Positions 1 through 60,597 of a stretch of 64,000 nucleotides of DNA are shown here, piece after piece. This DNA comes from Lama glama. Its lineage: Eukaryota. The DNA is taken from assembly GCA_028534125.1 (NCBI GenBank), contig CM052850.1, positions 16,182,001 to 16,246,000 of the forward strand, in the 5' to 3' direction. A model generated the notes under the pieces. That model made no database searches. It was not told the origin of the DNA and saw only the letters and a program-made list of their open reading frames with translations. The first letter of the stretch is position 1. Each line of letters opens with the position of its first letter. The position numbers were made by a program, and so were the translations under genes.

Positions 1-81
1 GGGTCACAGACCAGGGGCTGGCAGAGAAAGTCGCTCTCTGCTGGTCTCAATAGCTTTGTCACATCCCTTCCCTGGGCACAG

Positions 82-2488
82 TGATCCTATCAGCAGGAGC
101 CCTGGCATTGCGGCGAGCGAGACAGGCCCAACGACGGGCACAGCAAGCATCGATGCAGCTGAGTAAGGAGCAGAAAGAGCTAGTCCAGACACTCCTGGGG
201 GCCCACACCCGCCACGTGGGCCCCATGTTTCACCAGTTTGTGCAGTTCAGGGTGAGCACTTACAGGATTCAAGCTGGAATGTGACAAAAAGGGTGCCCAA
301 GGAGGCTGGCCTGAGGGAGGGGGCTGTGTGCCATGCACCAATACAGAGGACGGGACTTCTCCGGAACCTCAGTGGGGCAGATTCCTCAGCCTAGAACCCA
401 TCCAAGATAAAGCTGGAGAGGCCTAAAGGGGATTCCTAAGGGGTGGTCGAGGGGGTGCCTCTTACTTAGGTTCTGATCTCTGCAGCCTCCAGCTCATCTG
501 TTCACCCATCACCAGCGCTTGCCCACCCTGGTCCCTGCACTGGCGCTGCTCACACACTTTGCAGACGTCAATACTTTCATGGTACAGCAAATCATCAAGT
601 TCACCAAGGATCTCCCCCTCTTTCGGTATGTGACCTCTCCTTACCTTTCAGGAAGAAAACACTCGTGAACTATAATCTGCCCCCGACCAAAAATAAATAA
701 AGTCACTGACCAAACTAACCCATCCCTCAGCCTTTCCAAAAGCCAGGTCTTGAATTCCCAGCTTTGTTTTTAAGTATCCAATCAGAACTGGGAGTTCCAC
801 TCCCTCTCTGAAGTTCAGGCTAGAGTCTGAAGTGCCGGTTACCTACTCCCCACAGGTCCCTGCCCATGGAGGACCAGATCTCCCTTCTCAAAGGAGCAGC
901 TATAGAAATCTGTCATATAGCACTCAATACCACTTTCTGTCTCCAAACACAAAACTTCCTCTGTGGGCCTCTTCGCTACACAATAGAAGATGCAGTGCAT
1001 GGTGAGATGGTGCTAGAACAGTAGAAGGCATCCCTTTGGTATGGTATGTGGCAAGGTGAACCAAAGGCTCCTAAGCCTTGTGTCTCCCACAGCGGGGTTT
1101 CAGGAAGAGTTTTTGGAGTTGCTCTTTGGCTTCCATAGGACATTGCGGCGACTACAGCTCCAGGAGCCCGAGTATGTGCTCATGGCTGCCATGGCCCTCT
1201 TCTCTCCTGGTGAGTATCCCCCAAAGCCCAAAAGCTTTTGTTTCACCACCTCTGCCCAAACTCCCAGCTCCCTGCATCCACCCATCCAAGCCTTAGTCTT
1301 CAAACCACTGGAATGGGTCTATCTCAGCCTTGGGTCCCCCCCTGTGCAGGCTACCCACAACCCCCAACCTTGTCCTGCCCTACTCCCTATCTTACAGACC
1401 GGCCTGGGGTAACCCGGAGGGAGGAGATTGATCAGTTGCAAGAGGAGATGGCACTGACTCTGCAGAGATACATCAAAGGCCAGCAGCCAAGTCCCCGGGA
1501 CCGGTATGGTGGGACTGGAGGCTATACCAGAGCAGGAACGGGTTAGGGAGACATTGAACTCAGGAAGCTTTTGCTGTCCTTTCTTTTGGGAAACCAGGGC
1601 CCTTGAAGGTCTAGTCCTTCCCTCCCATCTCATAGAGTTCCGGCATCCAAATTGCTCCTACTGCTATTTCATCTCACTTTTTCCATATTTTTTTATTCAG
1701 TAGAGATGCAAGGTAGTAGCTCATAGGCTCTGTATAATAGCATTCCTGAGATTGATGACATCCATCACCTCACCAAGCAACTTCTCCAGACTAGAGCAGC
1801 CTTTCAACAGTTTTGTTCACTCTCTTTCCTTGGCCCTTCCCCTCCTCTCCATTGGTCCAATTCCTTTAATTTTTCATTCCCCTTGAACTTATGGTCATTC
1901 AATTTCATGGCCAAAGCCAGTCCCTGTATCACAGTCCATGATCTATCCAGGCTCTAAGGTATGCTCCACTTCTATTCTTGCTTATTCCTCAATGAGCCCA
2001 CTCGGCCAGAAAAGGGATGCTTTATACCACAGAACACATCCACCTTCTGGAACCTGCTCTGGAAGGCCAGATCCTCCGATGCCACACAGTTGAAAATCTG
2101 GCCAAGTCTGGGGTTTTCTTCACGCTTGGGGCTCAGAGCTCTGGGTTCAAGAAAAATGGCATAGTGAAAGGAGTCAGTGTCAGAGGCCCCCTTGGGGACC
2201 TTTGGAACTTTTGGTACATTTGTCACACCAGAGCATATTTTCTAGTGTTCAGACCTAGCTTCACTGAGGGGTGGTTCAGGGAATCAGGGCTCAGGACAAG
2301 ACTCTCAGCTGCTTTATTTCCCTCCTCTTTCCCTGGTGACCCCACTACTTCTTCCCAGGTTTCTATATGCGAAGCTGCTGGGCCTGTTGGCTGAGCTCCG
2401 GAGCATTAACAATGCATATGGGCACCAAATCCAGCACATCCAGGGACTGTCCACCATGATGCCACTGCTCCAGGAGATCTGCAGCTAA
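82..2488 (+). CDS. NR1I3: Constitutive androstane receptor (CAR), hinge and ligand-binding-domain exons; 5' part lies upstream of the window
   Basis: GT-AG exons 82-251, 486-625, 856-1001, 1093-1209, 1398-1503, 2359-2488 (TAA) splice in frame. They encode ILSAGALALRR...PPAHLF...IIKFTKDLPLFR SLPMEDQISLLKG...LQLQEPEYVLMAAMALFSP DRPGVT...FLYAKLLGLLAELRSIN...MMPLLQEICS*, the CAR AF-2 end. Poly(A) variant ATTAAA at 2603-2608. Confidence 0.97.
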
Positions 2489-3312: not shown

Positions 3313-5767
3313 TTCTCCAGCACAGCACCCACACACCAGTTACTATCCACCAAGCCTGTTGGGGAAGAGGATATAGACTAGGTTATTTAACAGCGCTTGG
3401 AGAAAGGGGTCGGCGGAAGTAAGGCGGAGCTTCCTTCCCACTGTCTCCCCAATCCCTCAGCACTTCTGAATGTCATCTAAATAAGCCTCACCTCTAAACA
3501 CCATGTTGGCCTGGGGCAGAGTCAGGTGGTAACCAAAGGAGAAGGTTGTGTCTTGTAGCCTTGTATTTGCCTCAAACTCCACTCCAACCTGAACCTGAGA
3601 ACCAAGGGGAAGGATGGGAGAGGGATCTGTCTCAATGAAGACTAGAGGAGTCCTTACAGGGCATCAGCAGAATGAAGGCATGCGTGAAATGTATGTGTCG
3701 TGTGGGGAGGAAGAACAGTTGGTCAGTAGGGCCTGTGGAGGGAGATCCAGAGCAACTTGCAGGTGTGGGGGATGGGATCAGGAGACTCACCTGTTCATTT
3801 GCCCTGTGGTAATAACTTGCATGGGCCCCACCTGATCCCACATTCAATGTAGCTACCCAGTGTACAGCTGTGAAAAACAAAGTACAAGAGAAAAGAAATG
3901 TTACTGTATTAGGACACAGGCCAGGAACCCCAGCCAAGCTCAGGATTTCCCTCCCCATCACTATTCTNNNNNNNNNNNNNNNNNNNNNNNNNNNNNNNNN
4001 NNNNNNNNNNNNNNNNNNNNNNNNNNNNNNNNNNNNNNNNNNNNNNNNNNNNNNNNNNNNNNNNNNNNNNNNNNNNNNNNNNNNNNNNNNNNNNNNNNNN
4101 NNNNNNNNNNNNNNNNNNNNNNNCACAGAGTCAGTCATAGAGATAGGACTGCTCCCTCACCTCAGCAGTCCCCACCCCAGCCTGCCCAAGAAGTTTCTTT
4201 TCTAATCCCTGAACTGTACAGACAGTGAAGAGGCAGAGCCAATATGAGCAAGTGGGCAGCCAAGATGAATAGAACCCTGTGCCAATTCCTCACCCGATTC
4301 CCCGATCAGGTCAGGATTTCCCAGGGTCAGAGTGGCTGTGTAGTCATCTCCCCGATACTCGCCATCAAACTGCCATGTCAGGAATTTGGCCTGCTGTGTC
4401 TGGGTAGGAACAGCAAGAAGTAAAATCTCTCTCCTTATTTAGGATCACTATAGCCTCTGCTCCTCCTCCTAGAGCCCCCAGGGCAGGACACTCATGGAGG
4501 AGAAAGAGGAAATGCTTCAGTGTCTGAAGGCAGGAACCATGGGTCACCTGGAAGACAGCCTTGGCTCGGAGCCGCTCTGCCAGGAGGAGCAGGACCTGGG
4601 CATTGAGGCTACCACTGCTGTCCATATCCCCTACCACAGTGGGGAACACCTGTTGAAGAGTGTAGACAGTAAGACTGAGCTGGGTGGCAGGATTCAGCCT
4701 AAATCCAAGTTCAGGATTTCTTTCGCTGTACCCAGCGCCCCCTGGTGGAGCCACAAAGACAAACTCTCAGCTCCTCCCACAGAAATGTTTCCCCACCCTC
4801 TCCCATTCAGAAGAAACCATTCTTCCCCATAACACACACATTTCCTCCTCCTCTACACCTGGGTCCCAGCTGGGATTTTTAGGGAGATAACCCAAGTGTG
4901 GGGAGCCCTCACCTCAGTGGGGCTAAGTTGCCAATCCCCTGCATAGGCTGCATGGAGGTGGTAGCCAGGCAAGCCCAGAGCACTCATGTGCACAGTGTGA
5001 GCCACCTAGAGAAAGAGAAATCAATAGAGGAGAAGCATTCCTGCTCCATTTCAATCCCCGTCCCACCCTTCATCTTCTCTCCACTCAGAAGGTCTTTTAA
5101 GGAACCCAAATATTCCAACATACACAGATTAAAAGCAACAAGTCCCACAGGCAAAGGAAGTAAAGAGAGCCCCCACATCCTCCCTCTTTGTTCCCTATAG
5201 CCTGGCTAAGGCTGGAGTACAAAGGGAAAGAGAAGGAGATCCAGGNNNNNNNNNNNNNNNNNNNNNNNNNNNNNNNNNNNNNNNNNNNNNNNNNNNNNNN
5301 NNNNNNNNNNNNNNNNNNNNNNNNNNNNNNNNNNNNNNNNNNNNNNNNNNNNNNNNNNNNNNNNNNNNNNNNNNNNNNNNNNNNNNNNNNNNNNNNNNNN
5401 NNNNNNNNNNNNNNNNACCCCAAGAAGTAGTCTCCCCTTTCAATCCCACAGAAAGTGCTTTGGAGAAATTGACCTCCTTTCAAGTCCTGAAACGGGAAAT
5501 TCTCCACTCCATTGGGGCACTTGAACCTCACTGGGGCTGGATGCCCCAGCTGTGATCTCCCCTTTTCTGCTCCGATCACTGGACATCCAGCACTCAAGAC
5601 CCTCCCCTTCTCTGCCCCTTCAACTTGAGACACACAAATGACAAGTTCTCACCTTTGCATAGCCGGTGCAGCTCATCGAAGCTCCCAGGGTTGGGAAGAG
5701 GTTCCTCTCGACGGGGGCTCCGGCGGGGCAAAGCACCCATTGGTGCTAGGCCCAGTGTGTTCCCCAT
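3313..5767 (-). CDS. TOMM40L: Mitochondrial import channel TOM40-like (TOM40B); two exons and the stop codon are hidden in N gaps
   Basis: Visible coding exons 5767-5653 ([38 protein letters not shown]), 5005-4913, 4649-4548 ([18 protein letters not shown]), 4399-4294, 3867-3791, 3594-3492 and 3355-3313 ([14 protein letters not shown], running into gap 3148-3312). Missing exons fit gaps 5246-5416 and 3968-4123. Non-coding first exon donor at 6119-6123. Confidence 0.95.
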
Positions 5768-6123
5768 TTCATTCCAGAGGACATGGGAGGAGCCTGGGTT
5801 GGCCTGGGAAAGGACTCTATAGCTTCCTCTACCCACCACGGGCCCCACCCCCCATTATCCGACTCCCCAGTCCCAGAAACTTCCACATGGTCCAACGCTA
5901 GACCTGGAACAGGAGGAGTGGGGAGAGAGGGCACTGGTGGGGAGTTTGAACCCCAGGCACACTCCCATCCCATCTTTAATTCCTCACCCCCACCTGTCAC
6001 CCCTGTCTCCTCCCCCAATCTCTAATCCTAGTCCCCGCCACAGACATCACCCAGCTTCCTAGTCTTTCTACTCTTCATTCCTAGGCCCCAAGGCGAGGCT
6101 TGCAATGGAGCAATAGCCCTTAC

Positions 6124-6500
6124 CTTCTCAGACCATCATGCTGCCCCTTTCCCCCCGGCACACCCCGGTCATCTTGATGGGGGCAGCCATCTTGAGTGAT
6201 GGCAGAACTGCGGCTTCACCCTGCATTCCCAGCGTGGCCATGAACGCCATCTTGGAACCGGGCGTAAGAAAAGATTTCAAAGACCCAACCCTCCCTTGAT
6301 TGTGCGCCGCCCAATCGATTAAAAAAAAAAAAAAAGCTGCCTCGATCTCCCAGGGGCCAATGGGAGAGAAGGAAGCAAAGGAATGGCAAACCTCGCATCC
6401 AGAGAGGTCTAACCCCGGCACTGCAGAGACAGGCGGGATTTGATAGGTCCTTAGACTGACTCCGGTAGGTGGCCTTAGATCGCCCTGCCTCTCCAAGGTC
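6124..6500 (-). promoter_or_regulatory. TOMM40L CpG-rich promoter / first exon with YY1-type motifs and CCAAT boxes
   Basis: GCCATCTTG (YY1 core AAGATGGC on -) at about 6186-6194 and 6246-6254; CCAAT at about 6311 and 6357; raised CpG; donor GTAAG at 6123-6119. Confidence 0.6.
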
Positions 6501-7279
6501 GGGAAAAACCTTTAAGCGTACAAGACACTAGAGGGAGCATCTTGGAGCTTGAGCCACTGAAGTCCGTTCCGCCACATAGCCTGGATACGTGTTTTTGAAG
6601 GGTGGCCCAGGAAACGACTGTGAAAACTTCTTTCGAACAGAACACTGCTTCATATCACTCCTGGGCGCACCCCACCCCCACCCCACAGGAACCCCTGGGG
6701 ACTCCTCTTCACAGTTCTTCACAGTATACGGTACACCTCCAAATGATTCCTAGTCTCAGGTACAGCTCTCTCGAGGAAAATGGAGCCACACTTCCCTCCT
6801 GGAGGTCTACACCTCTCAAAGTTCGGCCCCTTGTCCCCTCGATGGAATGGGAATAAGTGTGAGAGTTTGGGGTAGAGGAGCAGGGGCTGCAGCCTTAGTT
6901 CTAGCAGAACAAGTCCCTGAAACAGCTGACCCCTGTAGTTAATCCTTCCTTCCCTGATTCCCCAGGCAGAGTTGGCAAATAATATCTAGGAATACGGACT
7001 CCTGACTTCAAATGCACTCCACTACAAAGCCACGAACAAATTAATGGCATGCCCTTCAAGTACTAAGTGCTCCACAGAGAAATAATTGAAGATGGAGTAT
7101 GATTTCTTGGACTCTGGTCACCTTCCTCACTAGCACTCACATGTCCACTCCCATCTCTTAGGAATGTTCTACATACACTTGGAGGGCAAAACGATGAAGG
7201 ATACGAATTCTTCTGATATCTGGCTGATTTCACCCAAATGCCTTTGGCCTAGAAGTGTACTTCTGCCCTCCCTCACAGT

Positions 7280-15491: not shown

Positions 15492-24150
<8,659 letters not shown>

Positions 24151-48977: not shown

Positions 48978-52400
<3,423 letters not shown>

Positions 52401-53783
52401 TCACTGCTTTAAGGAAAACTAAGGCAGAGCCAGCGGATGGGCTGGTGGAACTGTGAGCTCCCTGTTCAGGGCCCAGGACTTACCCAAAGAGAGAGGCGAG
52501 AAAAATGAGGGGGAAAGAAGAGGTACAGGTCTCAAGACAAACCCAGCCGGCGTTCCGCGGGGAGGGGGATAAGGACCACACCCATGCTATCTTCCCGCGC
52601 AGGGTTCGGGGCGCCGACCGGCTGCCTGAGTTCGGAAGCGCTCTCCCTCCCACCCCTCACTAGGCCTAACGTTTTCAGTTCGCTGCCTCCGCCCCCAACC
52701 TTTTCGGTCTCTCTGACTCCCCGTCCACTTTATTCTCGCGGCAAGTTCCAGAACCTACTTTTTCTGCTTCTGGATTGGTGAGTCCTAGAAGGTCCCGGAT
52801 CACATCCACCAGTGAAAATACTGAACTGATAGTGGCTCCTCCTCCCGCAAAGGCGGAGAGATAGCGGCTCTGCGGCGCTGGAGGTAACTGGTTCGGTGCC
52901 GGTTTGGAGAGAGTGGCCATATCCAGCACTGCCCTCCCCTCAGGGCTGGAGTGACGAGAGCTAGATCCTGGTTTGCATTCCCCAGCTCAAGCTTCTCAAG
53001 CCCAGTTAGGGTGAGAACCCTGGAGGAAGGGCCCCATGAGCTTTCGTTGTAGGGAGAGTAGATAGGGACACTCGAGGCTGGTCTGTGGGGAGGCAGCTCC
53101 ATAAACAGCTCCTTGATGTTAGCAACAGCCTGGGCCTACGGGAGCTAGGGCCGCCCGGCAACGTACTGTGTTTGTCAACAGGGGTCCTTGGGTGCCTCGC
53201 TCTCGAGGGGCAGCCCCCCTTTGCCGGCAAAACCCGTCGACCCAGTGCCTGCACTCTAGTTCCAGGCTTCCCCGCAGCTTCACGAGTCTCAAGCTTGCCT
53301 TCCCGTTTCCTCCCACGTAAGCCTTAGCTGCTTGGGCAAACGTTGGCATCAGCGTGTCCCTGTCGGGCACCGTCGTCCCCAATCCCACCCACAAGGCTGA
53401 GCGGCGCCCCATCTGTTCAGAGAGGAAACTGAGTCCCAGGAAGACTCCAATTCGGCCCAGTTCTGTATCCCCACCCCCTACGCACAGATACAAATAACAG
53501 TATCTTTTTCTTAATAAATTTATTCACAAAAAGTGAGATTGTAGAGGGTCTGGGGGCTGTACACAGGCAGGGGCCTGGGGAGCTCTGTACATGGGGCTGG
53601 GAGACAAGGGAGCCTCCAGGTGGAAGGATACTTCTTAATAAAAAAAATAATGGGAGGTACCACCACCCCCTCCCCCCTCCCCGATTAAAAAGACACAAAA
53701 ATAGACGTCTCTGAGGTAAACGGGGAGCCTGGGGCTTAAGGGTGTTGAAAGGGTTTCACAGGTGCCAGGGCTTAAAGAAGGTG

Positions 53784-58581: not shown

Positions 58582-59149
58582 TGTGGACACCACAGACTGG
58601 ACCTGGGAGGAGAAGAGAGGGTCAGTATTTGAATATGGAAGGAGATGAGAACATACGCTACCATACTAGTTTCTACACGTATGGAGGGCAGGAACCATGT
58701 CTATGATGTTAGTCACTGTATCCCCAGTACCCAGCATAGTGTTTGGCACAAAGTAAATACTTAGTATCCATTAAATAAATGAATTAATGAATGATAGCAG
58801 CCCAGGGCTTTGCCTCTTTCTACATTCCTCACCCTCTTCCTTCAGAACACAGCTTTACTGGAGAGCCAATAGTAGTCTCTATCTTGGCTGTCTTTATAAT
58901 CTAAATGCTCATGAAGGTCCCCCAAACCTGCTAGTCAAGTGGGATGTGCCCTGGGTGACTTAGGACCTCTGGTCAAATGAGGGTGTGGATCCAAGTCTAA
59001 CAGTCCATAAGACAGCATTCAATACTCAAACCCCTGCCCCTCCGGGCTGCAAATGAAGCCGACTGAAAGGGTGACTTGCGAATCACTCCCTCCCCCACCT
59101 CTGAGCTCCAAAGTGGTGTGGGGGATCAGGGGCAGAGGCCGGCAGGGAC

Positions 59150-59750
59150 GACAAACAATTCCCTGACCCCTAATCTCTGCACCTCTCCCACCACAGCAGG
59201 CTTAACCGGGTCCGCCCCCCTCGAGGGCAGAAAGGCCGAGGCCGCTGATTGGCTACGGAGTCCGGCGGCGTGTTCTCCGCGATCCATGGATGCTGTCGCT
59301 CCAGCCCAGTTCTCCCAGGCCTGCTGGGCTCCCCGCGGCTCTGCCTTGGTGGAGGGCGATCTCTCGGGTCTGGAGCAGTCCTCCCTCGGCATCCCCCCCA
59401 CAACGCCATAACGCCCCGGACCGTACCTGTCCCCCGGTGAGGCGGTGGGGGAGGCCAGCCGGGGCCAGGCGCCAGCTCAGGGCCACCCCCTCCTACCCTC
59501 GTGCAGCCCCCCTGCAGGCCCGGCTGCAGCTTTAGCAGCAGCTGTCGCCCAGATCTCTCCCGCCGCAGGGGCCGCCGCCATCTTTGTTGGTCCCGCCCGG
59601 CCACCGGCCACCGGCTTCACTGTCTCTCACAGCGCCTGCGCACCCACACTCGGAGTCCACCCACCCGCTTTCATGGCGCTTGCGTGAACCCGCCCCCTCG
59701 GCTCCGCCGCCGACACCATGGAAACACAGCCAACTTTAGGGCCGCCAGTT
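59150..59750 (-). promoter_or_regulatory. USP21 CpG-island promoter / 5' UTR exons
   Basis: Very high CpG; YY1 motif AAGATGGCGGC on - at about 59574-59584; candidate donors at 59426 and 59098. Confidence 0.7.
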
Positions 59751-60597
59751 CCCTGGTCTGCCCAGGATTGTCTTTAAATCATCGCTCCAAAGCAAGTCCC
59801 TAAAGTACAGAATACCATCGCTCCATCCTGTGGCCTTTAGGGATGTAGATATGACAATCATGGTATGGCCCTCCGACTTCCAGTACATATCATTCCCAGG
59901 GAGCAGGGGTGTGAATGTGGGAAGCTGCAGGGCCTGGATCCAGCCCACAGACCAGTGAAGTATCCACATAGGGTTGGAAAGATCCCTGGTGGGCAAAGAA
60001 TGTTAGCCCTGCAAACCCATTCCTCAGGCATCTTGCAGGCCAAAGCAGTAGGCTCCCTGCTAAAGGACAAGAGCAGAACTCAACAGCAGAGAGAGCAGTC
60101 AAGATTTCCTTTCATTCCCCAATTCCAGACCAGAGCATCCTCCAATTCCCTCTCCTTCCAGAACTAGTGTAATTGTACAGGTGCCTTGGGTCTCAGCCTG
60201 CTGACCGTTAGCCTGCTCACCCTCTATTAACTGACACCAATGAGAACCACAAGCCACTGAGGAATCAGCTTTTATTGATGAGTTATCTCCAGAAACTAAA
60301 AAGACTATGTATCCACTTTCAGTCACCCCCATCCCTCCAGCACCTTACACTGCTCCACCTGGAGAAGGGATATAAACTGTTTTTCAAGGCCCTAGTCTTT
60401 CCCCTCCCTGTGTAGCCCAACTCAGAAATTCAGTAGCAGTACTGTTGTTTTTTTCAGCAGTGTCTGTTGCAGCTACAATTATGGCTGAAGGGGTGTGGGG
60501 GTAAGCAGATAGGTGAGTAAGAAGAGTGATGCACAGGAAAATAGGAACGTAGTCTATCAAAGGTCCCTCTGTCCTGCCTCAGTGGCTCCATCCTTCA

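Follow-up and report, generated by a model that had tools for sequence, protein, structure and literature searches.

Why does the first exon of llama TOMM40L hold seven ATGs in a single reading frame, all of which run into the same stop codon? The exon lies on the minus strand of the window (the whole 64-kb stretch of DNA that was analysed), and its upstream open reading frame (uORF) translates from 6250 to 6128 into a 40-residue peptide followed by TGA (6130-6128). Re-translation and a list of the ATGs agree with an earlier note on this DNA: the in-frame ATGs at 6250, 6241, 6226, 6190, 6172, 6139 and 6136 are accompanied by no out-of-frame ATG inside the interval. The same is true of its placing of the TGA 4 nt before the splice donor, since exon 1 ends at 6124 and use of this donor is seen in a processed retrocopy of the gene (see below). 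On the spliced mRNA, the frame from AUG to stop lies wholly 5' of the coding sequence (CDS), and the retrocopy shows its last 14 codons and the stop joined to exon 2. The absence of out-of-frame ATGs holds for 6128..6250 but not for the whole leader, to which exon 2 contributes two such ATGs, 5784 and 5772. A modest CpG peak extends over 6200-6600. A pure ladder of seven ATGs was found in none of 100,000 dinucleotide shuffles of 6330-6124, the best of which had six (five shuffles), and in none of the 6,765 shuffles having at least seven ATGs. Moreover, the uORF is the only ladder of at least five ATGs among the 735 short single-frame ORFs of the window. The seven-ATG single-frame pattern exceeds local chance, and local chance is what the shuffles of this interval, picked post hoc, measure; they give no genome-wide P-value.

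The gene is assigned to the Tom40 family by its downstream exons, which match TOM40 in a PDB search (E 1.1e-12) and the Pfam family Porin_3, the latter below the curated cut-off. Its identification as TOMM40L comes from a row in a catalogue of human Ribo-seq ORFs, in which c1riboseqorf217 is a TOMM40L uORF of 123 nt and 40 aa that is classed as conserved and listed with one mass-spectrometry study (PMC10032668, supplementary file 2). Llama and human share the gene, both lengths, six of the seven Mets and a second uORF, which is 360 nt away in human and 362 nt away here; the llama uORF has one more in-frame ATG, at codon 4 (6241). By eye the two peptides are identical at 36 of 40 residues, including all of residues 12-40. 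The uORF is already known: it is a catalogued human ribosome-translated ORF seen in another mammal. For c1riboseqorf217 the catalogue gives PhyloCSF scores of -31.31 in primates and -352.47 in mammals, and 'conserved' there denotes amino-acid similarity in non-primate mammals, not conservation of the frame, a class that comprises about 4-5% of uORFs (PMC10032668). The catalogue row is silent on TISU/YY1 motifs, nested starts, the position of the transcription start site (TSS) and an in-frame splice form. Our literature search found neither a functional study of the TOMM40L uORF nor a repression experiment on it. The identifier c1riboseqorf217 had no match in main texts, and TOMM40L and TOMM40 are named nowhere in the main texts searched, including those of PMC13275300 and bioRxiv 10.1101/2025.07.07.663426. 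Among the matches listed for TOMM40L/TOM40B, nothing concerns the leader.

Table 1. Features of the TOMM40L leader and first coding exon (positions in the window).
Feature	Position	Strand	Evidence or remark
TISU/YY1-like element 1, holds ATG 6250 (Met1)	6243..6254	-	10/12 consensus match; Met1 in 22/22 relatives
40-codon uORF in TOMM40L exon 1	6128..6250	-	orthologue of human Ribo-seq ORF c1riboseqorf217; translation, 36/40 residues, relatives
Lineage-variable ATGs 6241 (Met4, absent in human) and 6226 (Met9)	6226..6241	-	13/22 and 10/22 relatives
Inverted pair of YY1-type cores (hairpin arms, one forward and one reverse core)	6186..6203	.	
TISU/YY1-like element 2, holds ATG 6190 (Met21)	6183..6194	-	11/12 consensus match; Met21 in 22/22 relatives
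Transcription start read as capped (C at -1, A at +1), 6 nt before ATG 6172	6178	-	retrocopy 5' end, single molecule
Weaker TISU/YY1-like element 3, holds ATG 6172 (Met27), A at +4	6165..6176	-	9/12 consensus match; Met27 in 22/22 relatives
Lineage-variable tandem ATGs 6139 and 6136 (Met38, Met39)	6134..6139	-	8/22 and 14/22 relatives
Exon 1 splice donor	6122..6124	-	junction in retrocopy
Second uORF, 19 codons, behind candidate upstream acceptor 5903	5829..5888	-	human equivalent: c1riboseqorf218 (23 aa, young class)
Acceptor of exon 2 seen in retrocopy	5793..5795	-	sets uORF in frame with main CDS, 30-nt open gap
ATGs 5784 and 5772, out of frame; their short frame overlaps the main start	5746..5784	-	
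First coding exon of TOMM40L, main ATG 5767 (Met-Gly)	5653..5767	-	reading frame; downstream exons match TOM40

Which parts of the ladder last can be read from 22 related peptides (8 clusters, without species labels), which homology, representative and cluster searches recovered from public assemblies. The earlier note had made conservation of frame and stop a check on its reading. The distance from Met1 to the stop is exactly 40 codons in human and in 20 of the 22 relatives, a figure that is biased upward, like that for the core, because a search by protein similarity favours intact frames and a shared core. The other two end at codon 37 with an altered tail that fits a one-base loss late in the frame, after the third of the motifs described below; frameshifting indels had been named in the note as counter-evidence, and in these two peptides this is borne out in part. 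Met1, Met21 and Met27 are present in all 22 relatives (the column of Met27 lies inside the registration anchor), whereas Met4, Met9, Met38 and Met39 are each present in only some of them (Table 1). Met6, which llama lacks, is found in 8 of the 22. All seven llama Mets recur in a single relative, and the number per peptide is 7 here, 6 in human and 3 to 7 elsewhere. This speaks against the ladder of seven designed steps that had been proposed. Since only Met1, Met21 and Met27 persist in all 22 relatives, we regard the motif ATGs, not the ladder, as the lasting part; three promoter motifs together with drift account for most of the seven steps.

We compared the changes in the peptide with neutral simulations of eight rows (the query and seven cluster representatives, with the frameshifted P0022 left out) on a star tree, with substitutions and without indels. 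The 34 alternative amino-acid states split 18 / 4 / 12 over codons 1-11 / 12-31 / 32-40, and the simulation expects about half of the changes in codons 12-31; four or fewer fell there in 0 of 1,500 sets under each of six settings. This low variation was read from protein, in which constraint at the DNA level and at the peptide level are not separable for codons 12-31. The changes have a mean BLOSUM62 score of -0.38, compared to -0.39 to -0.47 in the neutral simulation (P 0.33-0.46), and judged from these sequences the amino-acid changes in the uORF peptide look neutral. A search of 1.84 billion representatives returned two matches, one orthologue-like peptide and one 588-aa tandem-repeat protein. 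The latter was rejected as a repeat-inflated artefact and left out of the counts of relatives (1 of 24 stored proteins). A pattern scan of metagenomes for host DNA likewise gave two matches, both due to chance and inside a bacterial operon that, by eye, we take to resemble the sodium-pumping NADH dehydrogenase cluster.

The three lasting ATGs all sit in the 7-mer CAAGATG. By-products of YY1-like CAAGATG motifs were the alternative that the earlier note had offered for three of the ATGs, and exactly those three are kept in every relative. The window holds 12 minus-strand copies of the 7-mer, four near the promoter and three in exon 1. The fourth, at 6544-6538 (-), is found about 290 nt upstream of the uORF and in a different frame, and the stretch around it is partly recognisable in the N-terminal extension of one related peptide (P0005). 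Scored against the 12-letter TISU consensus, SAASATGGCGGC, the three elements reach the matches given in Table 1, and the remaining upstream ATGs match at only 3 to 8 of 12 positions. The 8-letter core AAGATGGC (PMC2518114) is present on the sense strand at 6253 and 6193, in the elements with 10/12 and 11/12 matches; element 3, with 9/12 and without G at +4, is TISU-like only. TISU is described as lying at +5 to +30 from the TSS, as bound by YY1 and enriched in mitochondrial genes, and as initiating without leakage from short leaders; in 36% of the genes that carry it, the CDS begins elsewhere than at its AUG, and for these the authors postulate inhibition of the downstream AUG (PMC2518114). 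Reverse YY1-type cores directly precede motifs 2 and 3, the second of them at 6176-6180, and such pairing is found nowhere else in the window. Four of the five motifs, as well as the mapped start at 6178, fall within the low-variation block of codons 12-31. Elsewhere in the window, stronger CpG-rich kilobases are found at 23001-24000, 52001-53000 and 59001-60000, and two of the three carry a minus-strand AAGATGGC core (23756, 59584) and are perhaps further TISU-type promoters.

The inverted pair at 6186-6203 had also been put forward as a hairpin. The hairpin exists and folds at -9.6 kcal/mol alone, but in the spliced leader it is weakly paired (probability 0.23-0.28), and shuffled sequences fold at least as well as the five leader models (z +0.28 to +1.77). 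For these reasons it was rejected as a functional RNA element.

A self-search of the genome identified four small contigs that match only the last 56 bases of the exon part of the query. All have the same 5' flank and stem from a single processed TOMM40L retrocopy, which is about 94% identical to the gene. It is found on contigs G000:C782255 (162-781) and G000:C94543 (1-2004), and further contigs with the same flank look like alleles or assembly bubbles. The retrocopy begins at 6178 and joins donor 6124 to acceptor 5793. Its 3' end, which lies on a different contig connected by sequence overlap, carries an A-rich remnant and, after it, 14 bp that recur directly before the 5' end (a target-site duplication, TSD), and between this TSD and the gene sequence stands one G where the genome has C. 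It thus shows intron loss, a poly-A remnant, a TSD and an extra 5' G, as expected of a full-length L1-type retrocopy. The extra 5' G of full-length L1-mediated insertions is described as reflecting the cap (PMC11702581); no passage on a cap G was found in PMC13756887. Because of the TSD and the extra cap-type G, we take 6178 to be a genuine capped start at a pyrimidine-purine initiator. A main TSS 3' of most of the ATGs had been named beforehand as an argument against the ladder, and this is borne out in part, in that the sole mapped start lies downstream of four of the seven uORF ATGs. It bypasses the two best TISU matches and leaves a 6-nt leader before the weakest element, whose ATG stands at +7 and whose motif begins at +3, with the TISU window being +5 to +30 and the start being a single mapped one. 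Such a short leader is associated with leaky initiation (PMC13219423). The retrocopy moreover joins 5653 to about 5005 and 4913 to 4399, junctions that imply a source mRNA without internal exons and out of frame. The 6178 transcript may be atypical, because it represents a single molecule in which internal exons are skipped. Leaders longer than the 6178 form are implied in human, since in the catalogue the human ORF begins at the first ATG.

With the 5793 acceptor, ATG 6250 and the main ATG are 153 nt apart and in frame, and the uORF TGA is the only stop between them. Read-through is usually linked to a C-led context after the stop codon; here the base after the TGA is G. The candidate acceptors 5803 and 5903 are out of frame and leave gaps of 40 and 140 nt. 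Acceptor 5903 has 18 pyrimidines in the 20 positions before its AG and would also be used in llama. The human counterpart of the ORF behind it, c1riboseqorf218, is catalogued as primate-young, yet a 19-codon version with the same start is present in the llama window. Closer to the CDS, the out-of-frame ATG 5772 has G at -3 and lies 5 nt upstream of the main ATG, with which it could compete for initiation; the retrocopy retains 5772 and lacks ATG 5784. N-myristoylation needs a Met-Gly start, and the next in-frame ATG after the main one, at 5740, is a second such start. The TOMM40L protein is reported to be N-myristoylated (PMC4550359). At the other end of the gene, exon-like sequence on the + strand (window 1-1700) approaches the TOMM40L 3' end, with a poly-A signal near 1695 (-). 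This + strand gene is presumably NR1I3, arranged tail to tail with TOMM40L.

Our preferred explanation, to which we give a probability of roughly 0.6, is that three forward and two reverse YY1-type motifs span the start region and that the ATGs of the forward motifs open one frame, translated in human, which likely lowers TOM40B in cis and whose peptide probably has no job of its own. Read from the sequence, YY1 would bind the motif cluster and support dispersed initiation. The dispersed starts would each meet a different TISU-like AUG first, which would result in a uORF of 40, 20 or 14 codons with the same stop, and TOM40B would be made by leaky scanning or by re-initiation over the 30-nt gap (or over 40 or 140 nt if 5803 or 5903 is the acceptor). 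Re-initiation is generally better after shorter uORFs and over longer gaps. Leakage should be favoured in transcripts that begin at 6178, with 6 nt of leader ahead of the ATG of the weakest motif (PMC13219423). Additional in-frame ATGs would arise and vanish nearly free of cost, because they feed an existing stop, and this would account for the seven in one frame in llama. A more ambitious form of this explanation, which we regard as doubtful, is a TSS-proof uORF. Here, the three TISU/YY1 elements would be held in one frame so that each start cluster supplies an AUG close to the cap that leads to the shared stop; the promoter used would set the length of the uORF (40, 20 or 14 codons) and the acceptor used would set the re-initiation gap (30, 40 or 140 nt), so that the bases that recruit YY1 would also dial the amount of TOM40B and the use of Met1 versus Met10 as its start.

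The explanation that competes best is a pure by-product: selection would act on the promoter motifs or the start region only, the motif ATGs would share a frame by chance (about 1 in 9) and their translation would be tolerated, without any tuning. We consider this possible, though a good deal less probable than a cis-acting uORF. It fits the facts that the motif ATGs alone are kept in the relatives, that conservation maps to the motif block, that the only mapped start lies beyond four ATGs and that two related peptides are frameshifted. Moreover, in the simulation start, stop and open frame all survive along a single lineage with a probability of 0.51-0.69 (substitutions alone), and because an intact frame is that likely by chance, a few intact relatives selected by the search are weak evidence for selection on the frame. 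However, the stop stands at the same codon in human and 20 of 22 relatives despite fast change in codons 1-11 and 32-40. Dipeptides compatible with an ATG in the +1 frame occur in none of 20 distinct blocks (the +2 frame being invisible in protein) while the in-frame Mets turn over; one-step routes to a new ATG are fewer out of frame (8, 4 and 4). It also seems unlikely that a 40-codon uORF translated from a TISU-like start would leave the CDS unaffected.

An improbable reading is that of a functional microprotein, either the 40-residue peptide or its 20-residue C-terminal form, perhaps at the mitochondrial outer membrane. The human copy is classed as conserved at the amino-acid level, with its one mass-spectrometry study (PMC10032668), residues 12-31 hardly vary, and llama and human do not differ over residues 12-40. 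The invariant block, however, coincides with the DNA motifs, and the strongly negative PhyloCSF (-352 in mammals) together with substitutions that are no more conservative than neutral ones argues against a microprotein, which the earlier note had considered as well. The peptide furthermore has no Pfam match and, among the 1.84 billion representatives, no relative beyond apparent orthologues. Slightly less probable still is a latent N-terminal extension, in which read-through of the TGA on the 5793 form would lengthen TOM40B by up to 51 residues: the in-frame 153 nt with one stop and the junction seen in the retrocopy would allow it, but the in-frame placement has a prior of 1 in 3, neither 5803 nor 5903 would keep the frame, a G follows the TGA, the longer proteins include no fused one (weak evidence; one of three candidates matched, ending at the same stop), and the extension would lose the Met-Gly start of N-myristoylated TOMM40L (PMC4550359).

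As a catalogued, conserved human uORF found in another mammal, the finding matters little, and it belongs to a large known class. Exon 1 is also a clean test case for the postulate that TISU elements whose AUG does not begin the CDS are strong translational brakes (PMC2518114), with three elements in one frame before a little-studied Tom40 paralogue. If the choice of TSS and splice site tunes this brake, the locus would show in compact form how one and the same DNA motif controls both transcription and translation of a mitochondrial import gene.

How does this uORF compare with known systems? A constrained frame without a coding pattern of codons is common among human uORFs, of which 45.8% are described as ORF-constrained and 2.5% have a PhyloCSF above 10 (PMC13275300), and a CRISPR screen concludes that the essential uORFs mostly act in cis (bioRxiv 10.1101/2025.07.07.663426). 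The TOMM40L uORF resembles the regulatory uORFs of these studies that are conserved in frame and have a non-coding signature (ORBL, PMC13275300; CRISPR screen, bioRxiv 10.1101/2025.07.07.663426), in that its frame, start and stop are apparently kept and its PhyloCSF is negative. For this class of uORFs, a cis role would be the default reading. Compared to TISU, the downstream YY1 element (Elfakess and Dikstein 2008, PMC2518114), llama has the AAGATGGC core twice and a weaker third copy, all in sense orientation. As described there for TISU, these copies are in a mitochondrial gene and apparently near a start site, and they fit the 36% class in which the AUG is not the CDS start. None of the three copies reaches 12/12, unlike a perfect TISU. 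Finally, in contrast to the single elements described in that paper, the llama exon has three copies in one frame, with a shared stop and interleaved reverse cores.
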